Positions 60,868 to 63,815 of a DNA stretch of 64,000 nt are shown here, one piece after another. The position numbers and the translations under genes are program-made. The DNA comes from an uncultured delta proteobacterium (GTDB lineage: Bacteria > Desulfobacterota > Binatia > UBA9968), in contig CAWJZV010000006.1 in the NCBI GenBank assembly GCA_963847445.1, forward strand, positions 32,001 to 96,000, given 5' to 3'. The notes below the pieces were generated by a model. The model made no database searches, had not been told where the DNA came from, and saw only the letters and a program-made list of their open reading frames with translations. Every line of letters starts with the position of its first letter. Within the stretch, counting starts at the first letter, position 1.

Positions 60868-60964
60868 CTCTCGCAAAGGCGCAAAGACGCAAAGGTAGAG
60901 AAGTTTCCTCGGCTCTGGATGACGGGCCTTGCCCGTCACTTGGCGTCTTTGCGCCTTTGCGGAG
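60868..60964 (+). repeat. Palindromic intergenic repeat, copy 2
   Basis: CTCTCGCAAAGGCGCAAAGACGCAAAG pairs with CTTGGCGTCTTTGCGCCTTTGCGGAG; inner TGACGGGC-CTT-GCCCGTCA hairpin. Confidence 0.85.
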
Positions 60965-61010
60965 TAATCTCCTAATCCGATGTCTCTATCTTACCGTGGT
61001 GAGTAAATCT

Positions 61011-61731
61011 ATGACAACCTGGCCGGCAGCGCCTGCCGAACTTCCGGCGCTTGAACGGACCGTCCATGTTTGGGCGGTGCCGTTAGATGACGCGCGTGTC
61101 GATCTCGACGGCGGGCGGGAGCTGCTCTCGCCGGACGAGCGCGAACGCGCGGCGCGCTTTCATTTTGAACAGCACCGGCGGCGCTATCTGATTGCCCATA
61201 TCGCGCTGCATAGGATTCTCAGCCGCTATTTACAGATTGACCCGGCGCGACTGTCATTTCGAACTTGGCAGCAACGGCAAGCCCAAGCTGCCACCGGTGC
61301 TGGCGCCGGCCGGCGTCGACTTCAATCTCTCTCATTCCAACGAAATGGCTTTGCTCGCGGTCAACCTCATCGGCGAGATCGGTGTCGATATCGAGTACGT
61401 CAAACCCGACTTCAAGTTCGAGGAGATCGCCGAGCGATTTTTCACGGCGCGAGAAGTAGCGGCGCTGCGCGGACTTCCATCCGAGCTGCAGCGCCAAGCG
61501 TTTTTCAAATGCTGGACCTGTAAAGAGGCCTTTCTCAAAGCCAAGGGCACCGGGCTATCAGGCAAGCTGGATGAGGTGGAAATCACTCTTGGCGCTGCGG
61601 ATCAAGTACTGATCCGCGCAGACGTGCCCGGTTGGTCACTCGCCGAATTGAATTCCATCGACGCTTACCAAGCCGCGCTCGTGGTCGCCGGCTCCTCGGT
61701 ACCCATCCGATACTATCTCTGGCAGCCGTAA
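61011..61731 (+). CDS. Sfp/HetI-type 4'-phosphopantetheinyl transferase (frameshift near 61258)
   Basis: LSPDERERAARF, GKPKL, FNLSHS, IGVDIE, WTCKEAFLKAKG.GL. Confidence 0.9.
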
Positions 61732-61753
61732 TCAGTTGTCCGGTTCGGGATAT

Positions 61754-61829
61754 TTCTCGCGCCAAGTCGCAACGCGCGCCAAGTGACGGGCCGAAGTCCG
61801 TCATTCCGGGCGGCGACCCGGAATCCAGG
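61754..61829 (-). repeat. Palindromic intergenic repeat, copy 3 (inverted), fused to a CGTC-type REP
   Basis: CGCCAAGTGACGGGCCGAAGTCCGTCATTCC is the reverse complement of the core; continues GTCATTCCGGGCGGCGACCCGGAATCCAG. Confidence 0.7.
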
Positions 61830-62251
61830 TTCATGGGTAGGGCGGGCTTCAGGCCTTTTCTTTTCAGGCGCCAGAACATTGCGCAGCAATAACAAATCCG
61901 CAGTAGCCATCGCTCAGTTTTATAAACCGCTCCGCAAACCGAAGTCTTTCTGTTTCTCCCGCCGGGAGTATCAAAACGACTACACAGTGTAGCAATCGGG
62001 CGACAGCTTAGAAGCTTTTCCCAGGGGGTGTTCTTTATGGCTCGGGAACCAGGTTTCTTCCGTAATTTCAAAATCTTAACCCGTCTGCACCACTGCGCCT
62101 CTGTTCTGGTACAACGATTGCGCTAGAGCGAAGCGTACCGGCGCTGCGAATCTCGCCCGTGCTTGGGGCTAGCGAGCCGGGGGCGCGGTTCGCGATGGCA
62201 GAAAATTTCTCTCGACAGCGGTCGATTTACGGCGGTAGGATCGAATCCAAT

Positions 62252-62303
62252 CAGATACGGCCTGACGATTGCGCCGAACGTGCTGGTGCGGGCGGATAAG
62301 GTG
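62252..62303 (+). pseudogene. C-terminal tail remnant of an ABC transporter substrate-binding protein
   Basis: QI/GLTIAPNVLVRADKV matches the ABC_sub_bind C-terminal motif GLTIPPxVLARADKVI; no upstream gene body. Confidence 0.7.
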
Positions 62304-62986
62304 CTTCGGGAAGCGTCGGCAAAAGCCGGAGGAAGGTAGCGAATGAAAGAGTCGTACGAAGGTAAGACCTAGCCAGTCGCCTTGGCCTCGAGTGATGCGT
62401 TGTGTCGGGCAACCGGCACGGCGAAGCGTTCACAGAGGTACAACCGGGCGGTGTATGGAGCTCCGAAAGCACCCTTTTGAGGTGGCCGACCTTATCCTGA
62501 ATATGGGGAAGGCAACAGTCATGTCGAACGATAAAGGCGAGTTCGATGTGGCCCCCACGGAGTCAGAGACCACCGGCACGGTTGGAAACTTTCCTCACGG
62601 AAGCCGAGAGACCCCGGTAACATCCGTTTCTATCGTAGAAGCGGATCGGTCGGAGAAGGCGCGAGGCCACAATGCCGACGTGCACGTTATCGGGGAGTCA
62701 CACAGTTCCATAGTACCAAAGAAGCCGGCGAACAAAGGCCGAGTGCCCAGGCCTGCGGAGTCGGGGGAGGGAAGGGGACTGACCAAGGAGAACACCGAGC
62801 AATCGCTACTGGACCGGACACAGAGCCGGAACTCGGACGGGAAACCGTTTGTAGCCAGGTCGCGTGGATTGCTGGGTGTACGTGTAGCTTTTGCACGTCA
62901 ACATCCGAGGTAAGAGCCGTATGCGGTAGCTCCGCACGTACGGATCTGTGCGGGGGGCGGTCAGCAATGACCGTCCCTACCGCGAT
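62286..62986 (+). mobile_element. Group II intron with the reverse-transcriptase ORF deleted (non-autonomous)
   Basis: 5' GTGCG, CGGCAAAAGCCG hairpin, domain I motifs (GAAGCGTTCACAG); domain V GAGCCGTATGCGGTAGCTCCGCACGTACGGATC at 62914-62946; domain VI with bulged A; ends CGCGAT. Confidence 0.9.
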
Positions 62987-63120
62987 TAAGGCAAAAGTAA
63001 AAATGAATAAGGCAAAATGAAAAGAAAAAAGGCCTGATGCGGCAGGCGATGAATTTTGGCTGATCGAAATCGGCGATTGACAGGTGACCGGGCGTTGGTA
63101 AACTAACACCCTTAACGGAA

Positions 63121-63453
63121 ATGACTCACTTGGCGCGAGAAGCTCATAATAGAGAAATCGATGGGGCACGTGCGCGGGAGATCGCGCGCGAGGTTGCCAA
63201 ACTTGCGCGATCGCTGCTTGGCGAAAACACGCAGGTGATCTGGTTTGGTTCTTGGCCCCGTGGCAAGGCGGTGGCTCACTCGGACATCGATGTGGCGGTT
63301 TCGATTGGCATACCGATTCCCGCGGAGCGCATGGCGTTGCTGCACGATGCTGTCGACGACATCGCGACGCTTTATGAAATCGATTTGCTTGACCTTGGCT
63401 CCGCTGGTCCGGGCTTGCGCGACGAAGTTCTAAAACATGGGGAACGACTGTGA
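63121..63453 (+). CDS. Minimal nucleotidyltransferase (MNT) antitoxin
   Basis: FGS..RG.....SDID; EIDLLDL; GERL C-terminus. Confidence 0.9.
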   Translation: MTHLAREAHNREIDGARAREIAREVAKLARSLLGENTQVIWFGSWPRGKAVAHSDIDVAVSIGIPIPAERMALLHDAVDDIATLYEIDLLDLGSAGPGLRDEVLKHGERL

Positions 63454-63815
63454 CTAAGCGGCGTCAGGCGTTAGCTTCGGCGCTCGCTCGCCTGCGCGAG
63501 GTCTTGGCACAGCCGGAAAACGACGTGAGCCGTGACGCAGCGATTCAACGCTTCGAGTTCTGTTTCGAACTGGCTTGGAAGGCGATTCAAGAGCAGGCGC
63601 GAGACGAGGGCATGGACTGTCAGTCGCCTAAGAGCTGTTTAAAACTCGCCTTCAAAAACTCTTGGATCCTTGACGAACCGGCGTGGCTGGCGATGCTGGT
63701 GGATCGTAATCAAACCTCGCATACCTACGACGAAGCCCTCGCCAAGGCGGTCTATAGTCGCCTGCGCGGTTACCTGCCACTGTTTGAAGATTTAACGAAT
63801 AATCTTGCGGCGTAG
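63450..63815 (+). CDS. HEPN toxin / HI0074-family nucleotidyltransferase substrate-binding protein
   Basis: DAAIQRFEFCFELAWK; RNQTSH (Rx4H); 4-nt overlap with the MNT gene. Confidence 0.92.
   Translation: MTKRRQALASALARLREVLAQPENDVSRDAAIQRFEFCFELAWKAIQEQARDEGMDCQSPKSCLKLAFKNSWILDEPAWLAMLVDRNQTSHTYDEALAKAVYSRLRGYLPLFEDLTNNLAA

Follow-up and report, generated by a model that had tools for sequence, protein, structure and literature searches.

Bacterial group II introns that lack an open reading frame (ORF) are described as rare, and a related intron with an ORF is said to accompany them in nearly every case (PMC4424553, PMC3245105). The closest worked example is the TeI3/TeI4 system of Thermosynechococcus elongatus (Mohr, Ghanem and Lambowitz 2010, PMC2882425). 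According to that account, the ORF-less introns of this organism share one breakpoint and have diverged families of exon-binding sites (EBS), and their mobilization in trans was shown experimentally. Here, we analyzed a comparable element in a 64,000-nt stretch of contig CAWJZV010000006.1 from an uncultured member of the Binatia. This stretch is called the window, its genome is G000, and coordinates without a contig label are positions in the window. The element follows a remnant of a substrate-binding protein (SBP) gene of the ATP-binding cassette (ABC) transporter type. We consider it probable, at roughly 85%, that it is a non-autonomous group II intron from which the reverse transcriptase (RT) ORF was deleted, that its lineage targets the tails of SBP genes, that it was inserted by retrohoming, and that it stayed mobile after the deletion with RT supplied in trans.

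As described in PMC2882425, the ORF-less TeI3 intron also has a deletion in domain IV that leaves N- and C-terminal remnants of the ORF. It likewise has one breakpoint in many copies at different sites, and its EBS1, EBS2 and EBS3 families match their own exons. Mobility by RT in trans was shown for TeI3, whereas we infer it for the window lineage. The two differ in intron lineage and in host, and at least three separate deletions are found in the window lineage. In the account given of it, TeI3 was amplified within one genome, whereas the window lineage is spread over many genomes and metagenomes with one such copy in G000, and it targets the gene ends of a protein-coding paralog family.

The IIB1 lineage found at stop and start codons, including Avi.groEL and EcKTE56.groEL (Gomes et al. 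2025, PMC12584367), is similar in being site-specific, in inserting at the end of a coding sequence, in leaving the host ORF essentially intact, and in having a delta-ORF form at the same place. However, the groEL introns are reported to insert between bases 2 and 3 of the stop codon of single-copy proteobacterial housekeeping genes, whereas the window lineage inserts before base 1 in a multi-copy family. All groEL-type introns in that description carry a subdomain Ia of 300-700 nt near the 5' end, which the 677-nt window intron does not have, and the window intron does not start with GUGYG. Judged by these features, the window intron appears to work like the groEL stop-codon introns but to stand outside their lineage. 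Group IIC introns, as outlined in the same report, share with the window lineage a compact ribozyme, an RT without a detected endonuclease domain, and a generic, many-copy motif downstream of genes as a safe landing site. In that outline they recognize a DNA hairpin and a very short IBS1 (intron-binding site 1, 3-4 nt) and have no EBS2, whereas the window lineage has an EBS1 of 5-6 nt, a candidate EBS2 and an EBS3 on coding sequence and needs no hairpin. The ORF-less dnaN introns of Trichodesmium with their RIR maturase also rely on the protein of a related ORF-carrying intron, but they are described as breaking an essential gene and having to splice (PMC12584367), whereas the window copy lies in a dead gene remnant.

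The search against Rfam found both the D1-D4 core and the domain V/VI consensus of a group II intron on the + strand. The D1-D4 type 6 model (RF02005) matched at 62348-62572 with 153.9 bits (E 2.8e-45, cut-off 49) over its whole length (1-225 of 225), starting 38 nt from the 5' end of the intron at 62310. The domain V-VI model (RF00029) matched at 62912-62986 with 43.4 bits (cut-off 40), again over its whole length (1-77 of 77). The RT/maturase that a mobile intron encodes in domain IV is missing from this copy: only an N-terminal remnant and the last 7 codons are left, and a Pfam scan of the 173-aa frame 62392..62913 detected no domain. By these features, the window element is classed as an RT-less group II intron. 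The lineage's RT matched solved IIA, IIB and IIC RTs in the PDB with E-values all between 1e-37 and 1e-41, which did not discriminate among the classes. The best RT relatives on plasmids are only about 50-54% identical and carry the generic annotation ltrA.

The intron limits were determined by comparison with an empty site and with relatives. The locus L080, in a related genome, is orthologous and has no intron. It aligns to 61500-62298 at 68% and to 62987-63020 at 91%, and the 11-nt gap between the two matches is equivalent to 62299-62309. Across the empty junction L080 reads ...GCAGATAGCGTCATCAGA / TAAGGCAAAAGTAAAAATG, and the window reads ...GCGGATAAGGTGCTTCGG / 677 nt / TAAGGCAAAAGTAAAAATG, with slashes at the junctions; given at other extents, the L080 junction is ...ATCAGA / TAAGGCAAAAG, ...ATCAGA / TAAGGCAAAAGTAAAAATG or ...GTCATCAGA / TAAGGCAAAAG. 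The stretch missing from L080 is exactly 62310-62986. This indicates that the insert is 62310-62986, placed between the last sense codon (CGG) and the TAA of the SBP tail. Since L080 carries the tail without the intron, the orphan tail is older than the insertion. The intron thus delimited begins with GAAGCG and ends with CGCGAT, and its excision yields ...GTG CTT CGG / TAA. Upstream of 62310-62313, no relative at another site shares any sequence with the window. Among contigs from public runs, the alignment of X1 record 2 ends at 62310, and loose ends begin after 62986 in X1, X16 and X17.

We rejected two other accounts of these ends. Insertion inside the stop codon, in the manner of the groEL introns, was discarded because occupied sites read [sense codon]-GA...GAY-[TAA/TGA] and the empty site [sense codon]-TAA, which leaves no other parse. 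The idea that GAAGCG arose when a linear intron retrohomed and its truncated 5' end was then repaired was discarded because the same end is found in dozens of copies, one of them with an intact RT frame.

The 5' exon belongs to the SBP family PF04392. The tail motif is the final part of this domain and extends up to profile position 292 of 293. About 20 SBP codons are left in the window as a ~60-nt remnant, and tblastn with an SBP query (two pieces of the L091 SBP) found no SBP sequence in the 1300 nt upstream of it. G000 contains at least 40 SBP tails, often in tandem gene arrays, and a stop codon directly follows 37 of them. Orphan tails make up 8 of 40, about a fifth; deletions within tandem arrays are one possible origin. 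Complete SBP genes at L213 (G047:C334) and L218 (G044:C188) have one or two extra orphan tail fragments behind them, at distances within 0.1-0.8 kb, and the intron lies in the last fragment. The target takes forms such as ...GGTGATTCGG / TAA and ...AAGGTGATTCGG / TAA. Flanks like 62987-63035 are present 3' of the SBP genes at C6:133322, C24:77991, C24:31204, C4:216886 and C12:28514 of G000. An A-rich motif (TAAGGCAAAAGTAAAAAT.AA.AAGGCAAAA) follows several SBP stop codons, and a second, T-rich type (ATTTTGGATTTTCGATTTTGGA) follows others. The SBP gene from C27 is frameshifted, and that of L091 is split over two frames.

We searched 123 genomes of the order and found a match in 34. The 5' junction was readable in 17 copies, 10 of which are located at SBP tails (the window copy, L031, L033, L037, L045, L051, L059, L060, L072 and L217); the non-SBP copies are L029, L030, L032, L034, L035, L061 and L036. 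TAA or TGA opens the 3' exon in all eight tail copies with a readable 3' junction. Similarity to the tail motif (AAGGNG-TCRGG) is also seen at the non-SBP sites and at many insertion sites that related introns occupy in other phyla. By the state of the host gene, two order-level SBP-tail copies follow an apparently intact PF04392 gene (L214, L217), one follows a frameshifted gene (L037), and seven, including the window copy, follow orphan or truncated tails. This surplus of orphan-tail hosts fits purifying selection against insertions in working genes, which may explain it. An unspliced intron lengthens the ORF by only 4-12 residues (EASAKAGGR in the window). In G000, the window copy is the only occupied tail.

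The metagenomes were probed with the intron's first 23 bases only, and the flank had no role in selection. This probe found 42 metagenome loci with 36 distinct 5' flanks. The tail motif ends 32 of the 36 flanks, and a recognizable tail of at least 15 codons (e.g. ...AKQIGLTIPPNVLARADKVIK) is present in 23 of those. Among the four others, L269 was counted as such only because its contig stops 13 nt before the intron. A stop codon opens the 3' exon in 18 of 19 metagenome copies (TGA in 12, TAA in 4, TAG in 2). The exception, L263, combines an SBP-tail 5' flank with a 3' flank like that of the full-length relative on contig C45 of G000, and is evidently a recombinant between two intron copies. 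L164 shares its 5' flank with L033 and was not counted separately; L032, from G074, accounts for one non-SBP copy and for a single junction of the second deletion type described below, and no conclusion rests on it. Taken together, the recurrent insertions show that the conserved "...(K/R)-V-I-(K/R)-stop" end of PF04392 paralogs evidently serves the lineage as a multi-copy landing site. A search of a limited literature collection for group II introns linked to substrate-binding proteins, to ABC transporters or to Binatia gave nothing relevant; we found no description of the SBP-tail target niche, while the element itself belongs to known kinds.

EBS1, EBS2 and EBS3 together constitute exon recognition of the IIB style as it is described in PMC2882425 and PMC12584367, and the predicted pairings of the window lineage have this layout. 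Written as EBS1/exon, the pairs include CUGAAU/(C)UUCGG in the window, CUUGAU/AUCAAG in L033, UUUGAU/AUCAGA in L031, CCUGUC/GACAGG in L030 and CCUGAC/GUCAGG in L034 and L061; the nearest relatives of the window copy have CCGAAT opposite ATTCGG. When EBS1 and IBS1 were anchored at the last exon base in 16 order-level copies, 6 of 6 bases paired in 10, 5 of 6 in five and 4 of 6 in one. All six paired in 23 of 24 metagenome copies, where the alleles CUUGAU:AUCAAG (9), UUUGAU:AUCAAA (4), UUUGAU:AUCAGA (2) and CCGAAU:AUUCGG (2) were found. EBS3 pairs with IBS3 in 11 of 12 order-level copies, with A:T, T:A and G:C all seen, and in 17 of 18 metagenome copies. EBS2 was assigned by eye from alignments and is weaker than EBS1; a sister subfamily has UCACC opposite GGUGA. 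The comparison shows that the predicted EBS1 alleles match the last-codon variants of their own exons. It supports ordinary base pairing to the exon, and not mimicry, as the mechanism of adaptation to SBP tails.

We compared the window copy with its full-length relatives. The relative in G000 (C45:134-2077) aligns to 62313-62888 at 90% and to 62890-62986 at 98%, and alignments to C45, L030 and L031 give a deletion of ~1.27 kb (~1270 nt) of the RT ORF. C45 reads ...GLLGVREAARKDKK... before the gap and ...PYPDVRFARQHPR with a stop after it; the frame in the window ends in GLLGVRVAFARQHPR and a stop. An interpretation made earlier from the letters of the window (the sequence-only reading) had described the RT ORF as cut down to its two ends, and this was confirmed, as C45 positions 710-1980 are missing from the window. 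The in-frame joining of these ends that it stressed is present in the window but incidental, since the sister copy L033 has one T fewer and is in another frame. As to the RT-encoding parent that it proposed to look for, the analysis found the full-length relatives C45, L030 and L031.

The deletion junction lies at about 62885-62892 and reads GTG-TAGCTTTT-GCACG. The fold of the domain IV remnant is modest (-17.1 kcal/mol, z -1.79, 7 of 200 shuffles as good). An ACGUG...CACGU stem is kept in all ORF-less types, in which a short domain IV hairpin replaces the ORF. The window type of junction, GTG-TAGC-T(T/G)T-GCACG, is shared by the window copy, L033, L035, L256, L258, L263 and L273, and these seven copies have seven different flank pairs. 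A second type, GTGAAGC / CGTGAGGTTTGCACG, was found in L250, L259, L269, L270, L275, L247/L276 and L032 (at least 6 sites), and the junctions of L238 and L274 differ from both. Going by the junctions, ORF-less forms arose three times or more. L273, at a different, complete tail (...PPNVLVRADRVIR / ... / TAA), shares 97.6% identity with the window copy. The presence of the same deletion type at seven sites suggests that the ORF-less RNA was mobile after RT loss, and presumably the RT of a full-length relative moved it in trans. A breakpoint that recurs at many sites, with EBS and IBS well matched at each, also formed the argument for the T. elongatus introns (PMC2882425). Of the trans mobilization in the sequence-only reading, the mobility of the ORF-less form is backed by the seven sites sharing one junction, and the supply of RT in trans is the part that we infer. 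Of the metagenome copies in which both ends are present, seven have the full length of 1943-1944 nt and 11 are ORF-less, at 672-687 nt; L262 was left out of the lengths, and the ratio is biased because short contigs favor complete short elements.

Among the full-length relatives, the RT frame is open over 574 codons in L030 and over 565 in L031. Both RTs match TIGR04416 (group II RT/maturase), L031 with 354.8 bits against a cut-off of 300. No HNH endonuclease domain was found in them, and Pfam shows RVT_1 only. L031 combines a GAAGCG 5' end like that of the window with an SBP-tail site and an intact RT frame.

From these data we propose the following mechanism. The target would be a short site made up of the final codons of a PF04392 gene for an SBP and the first base of the stop codon, in this case of an old orphan tail and not of a working gene. 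Pairing of EBS2 GCACC with GGUGC, of EBS1 CUGAAU with (C)UUCGG and of EBS3 A with the U of UAA would guide the insertion. As the pairings and comparisons suggest, the intron would have entered by reverse splicing followed by reverse transcription (retrohoming). Deletion of the RT ORF left the short domain IV hairpin, and the RT of a full-length relative would mobilize the ORF-less RNA in trans.

Within G000, tblastn with the lineage RT (E<1e-5) found RT-like sequence only in C45 and in the window remnant, and the RT frame of C45 is broken by three single-base indels. With the single lineage RT gene in this genome broken, the window copy is probably stranded in G000 now. In the C45 copy, no more than 4 of the 6 exon bases find a partner in EBS1, and EBS3 is unpaired, which points to an off-target insertion. 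The C45 copy (C45:120-2100, L002/L029) is located in the center of a palindrome, GGGCGTATGG / intron / CATACGCCC, with the look of a repetitive extragenic palindromic (REP) type. At another site in G000, C25:172010-172075, AAAAGGGGTCGAG is followed by a 5' intron fragment of ~50 nt from a related copy (GAAAGCGCCGGTAAAAGCCGG...GTAGCGGATGAAAAG); no similarity continues beyond it, indicating a truncated copy. Domain V/VI matches of another intron type were found at C11:775-848 (55.6 bits, at the contig start) and C11:94193-94268 (37.4 bits, below the cut-off), and tblastn with the lineage's RT found no RT at either.

Several observations weigh against the reading of the window element as a mobile, trans-assisted intron. 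Tblastn found no intact related RT in G000, and G079 and G075, which carry ORF-less copies of the window type, yielded no full-length relative; G000 is a metagenome-assembled genome (MAG) with 91.8% completeness and 6.9% contamination, and G079 and G075 are also incomplete. The C45 indels may be assembly errors, as single-base indels are frequent in the genes of G000 and its relatives, for example in the phosphopantetheinyl transferase gene of the window and in several SBP genes, and C45 possibly does not come from the same cell. The exon-exon joint 62309/62987, skipping 62310-62986, was absent from the contigs of four public runs, an absence that is neutral for splicing and for an empty allele; only contigs were available from these runs, and coverage in the RNA libraries may come from DNA or from relatives. 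Splicing and current mobility of the window copy are predictions. The control with non-self EBS1 was weak (mean 4.69 pairs compared with 5.56 for self) because all targets look alike, and the EBS1 loop of the window has one extra U relative to its nearest relatives and pairs with only 5 of 6 exon bases. Group II introns are expected to run from GUGYG to AY: the 3' AT fits, and the 5' GAAGCG does not. In domain V (D5), the G of the AGC triad stands opposite A (AGC...GAU) in 33 of 38 copies, including the window copy at 62914-62946, whereas the Rfam consensus has a G.U pair there; two of the 38 have a swapped AAC...GGU. The unusual 5' end and the D5 G.A are probably compatible with activity, because a copy with intact RT and dozens of independent insertions share both features.

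Gene conversion between copies could also spread the deletion without retromobility, and is the main alternative to trans mobilization. In its full form, this explanation holds that descent and not targeting placed the introns: one ancient insertion in an SBP gene was followed by duplication of paralogs, and the deletion spread by gene conversion with no trans mobilization. The SBP genes are indeed highly paralogous and arranged in tandem arrays, L263 shows recombination between copies, and no intact helper RT was seen in G000, G079 or G075. But identity is only 68% in the flanks of the empty ortholog, against 89-98% between intron copies from different genomes, and beyond ~60 nt the flanks of the copies are unrelated. 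The non-SBP sites resemble the IBS motif (AAGGNG-TCRGG) in the way that off-target reverse splicing predicts, and the EBS1 alleles fit the codon variant of their own exon. We therefore regard descent without targeting as improbable.

It is very improbable that the element is a one-off degenerate fragment, fused to the SBP tail by illegitimate recombination, with GAAGCG as a product of decay. Its non-canonical 5' end, the deleted RT, the host reduced to a ~60-nt remnant and its standing as the sole SBP-tail copy in G000 are what such an event could leave. However, GAAGCG also begins L031, with its intact 565-codon RT frame, and the copies at 42 metagenome loci. Both junctions are precise to the base, the ribozyme core is full length by Rfam, and many independent copies occupy the same kind of site.

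The sequence-only reading placed the 5' splice site at the GTGCG at 62286 of a 701-nt intron, whose first ~24 bases would encode VRADKV and thereby carry or mimic the SBP C-terminus. We give this model almost no credence. The GTGCG does fit the canonical GUGYG, and the SBP frame does run on into the intron, as claimed (ORF 62163..62339, TAG at 62337-62339). Yet this GTGCG is part of the tail codons CTG-GTG-CGG (L-V-R), and it stands at the equivalent position in 15 of 32 intron-free SBP tails of G000, in none of which an intron follows it. The equivalent of 62286-62309 is retained in the empty site, so the whole tail is 5' exon and exists intron-free in L080, and relatives at non-SBP sites (L029, L030, L034, L035 and L061) share nothing upstream of 62310. 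The partners of EBS1 and EBS2 at 62300-62309 would fall inside the intron. EBS1, which that reading asked to have mapped, pairs from 62497-62502 with the last exon bases. Its recognition of a group II intron with D1 and DV-DVI was right, with the length corrected to 677 nt and the start to 62310. The removal of 62304-62984 that it considered is not the natural excision, which is that of 62310-62986. Its proposal of a non-autonomous element from a lineage aimed at the 3' end of the expanded PF04392 family is borne out by the repeated last-codon/stop-codon insertions. The joining to SBP tails that it wanted tabulated holds for part of the order-level copies (10 of 17), with the junction always between last sense codon and stop. 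For dispersal or copying of the SBP tail by the intron, no evidence was found.

Hardly credible, too, is a domesticated element in which the intron or its unspliced extension (EASAKAGGR and a stop) regulates or modifies SBP genes for the benefit of the host, since, even though pre-stop insertion leaves the SBP frame whole with an extension of 4-12 residues and two copies lie in apparently intact SBP genes (L214, L217), 7 of 10 order-level tail copies, including the window copy, are located at orphan or truncated tails, where a gene to regulate is lacking, one of at least 40 tails in G000 is occupied and presence is patchy, and the extension shows no sign of selection.

Beyond the window copy, we lean slightly towards a wider picture of the lineage. 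It would be a compact one, with no endonuclease domain detected and with GA(N)GCG ends, specialized on the last-codon/stop junction of PF04392 as a multi-copy safe harbor, with EBS1 tuned to AAG, AAA, AGA and CGG. Its ORF-less forms, of at least three origins, would be more numerous in environmental DNA than the autonomous copies and would survive in genomes where no resident helper RT is seen.

The 5' termini of related copies vary and include GAUGCG, GAGGCG, GAAAGCG, GAGCG, GUAAGCG and GUGCG. Introns that share the conserved 5' motif are common in MAGs labeled Acidobacteriota, Planctomycetota and others (L094-L173); they have GAAAGCG, GAUAGCG, GAGCG or GUGCG ends, of which GAAAGCG and GAUAGCG are frequent in the MAGs labeled Acidobacteriota and Planctomycetota. 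More distant introns of the same Rfam type in Bryobacterales-labeled MAGs sit right after hairpins, unlike the window intron. In MAGs labeled Bryobacterales or Solibacter (e.g. L134, L135, L144, L158, L160, L163), the intron directly follows a short perfect hairpin, in an IIC-like manner. The features of the window copy and its exons are listed in Table 1.

Table 1. Features of the intron and its flanking exons in the window.
Feature	Position	Strand	Evidence
ORF-less group II intron, 677 nt	62310..62986	+	Empty site L080; divergence of relatives at both ends; Rfam
5' terminus GAAGCG, non-canonical relative to GUGYG	62310..62315	+	Present in the window copy, L031, L032, L033 and 42 metagenome loci
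Domain I core	62348..62572	+	RF02005
Candidate EBS2 GCACC, domain I internal loop	62469..62473	+	5 contiguous Watson-Crick pairs with 62300-62304
EBS1 CTGAAT, domain I hairpin loop	62497..62502	+	5/6 pairs with CTTCGG, anchored at last exon base
EBS3 A, paired with IBS3 = T62987	62565	+	Base after GGAGUC; covaries with first 3'-exon base
N-terminal remnant upstream of RT domain	62494..62889	+	In frame 62392..62913, overlaps ribozyme domains; L031 RT residues 5-135 at 82.6% (tblastn)
Domain IV remnant hairpin, site of deleted RT ORF	62873..62907	+	Alignment to full-length copies
Domains V and VI, 3' end AT	62912..62986	+	RF00029, full length
Orphan 3' remnant of PF04392 (ABC_sub_bind) SBP gene, ...GLTIAPNVLVRADKVLR	62247..62309	+	BLAST to 32 tails of G000 (62247-62309/13); L080
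IBS2 GGTGC (62300-62304) and IBS1 TTCGG (62305-62309), last SBP codons	62300..62309	+	Complementary to 62469-62473 and 62497-62502; IBS1/EBS1 covary
3' exon: SBP stop TAA (62987-62989) and A-rich flank (AAGGCAAAAGTAAAAATG...)	62987..63035	+	L080 match 91% over 62987-63020

Upstream of the remnant, a 4'-phosphopantetheinyl transferase gene (60957-61731) is broken into two frames around 61240-61260. Its 60957-61250 part gives a weak match to PF22624 and its 61192-61728 part a match to PF01648, and the ortholog at L080 is in one frame. The split is likely a single-base indel, and similar indels, which affect many SBP genes in G000 and in related genomes, suggest assembly errors. Downstream of the intron, a nucleotidyltransferase gene (63121-63453, Polbeta/NTP_transf_2) and a gene with an NTase_sub_bind domain (63450-63815, PF08780) overlap by 4 nt. 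This pair (63121-63815) has the layout of a nucleotidyltransferase-type toxin-antitoxin system, and its orthologs in G075 and G058 are also located just downstream of an SBP gene end.

The attractive reading of tail mimicry is corrected by this analysis and replaced by a well-supported target specialization. The landing pad is formed by the last codons and the stop of a large gene family, which parallels group IIC introns at terminators and the groEL introns at stop codons. The natural insertions offer a ready covariation series for EBS1/IBS1 and EBS3/IBS3, and the ORF-less copies form a natural set of delta-ORF derivatives, all of which keep the domain IV hairpin. The apparent mobility with a non-GUGYG end and a D5 G.A could inform the tolerance of the ribozyme core. 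For annotation, the analysis explains short extensions of SBP ORFs and orphan tails in these genomes.

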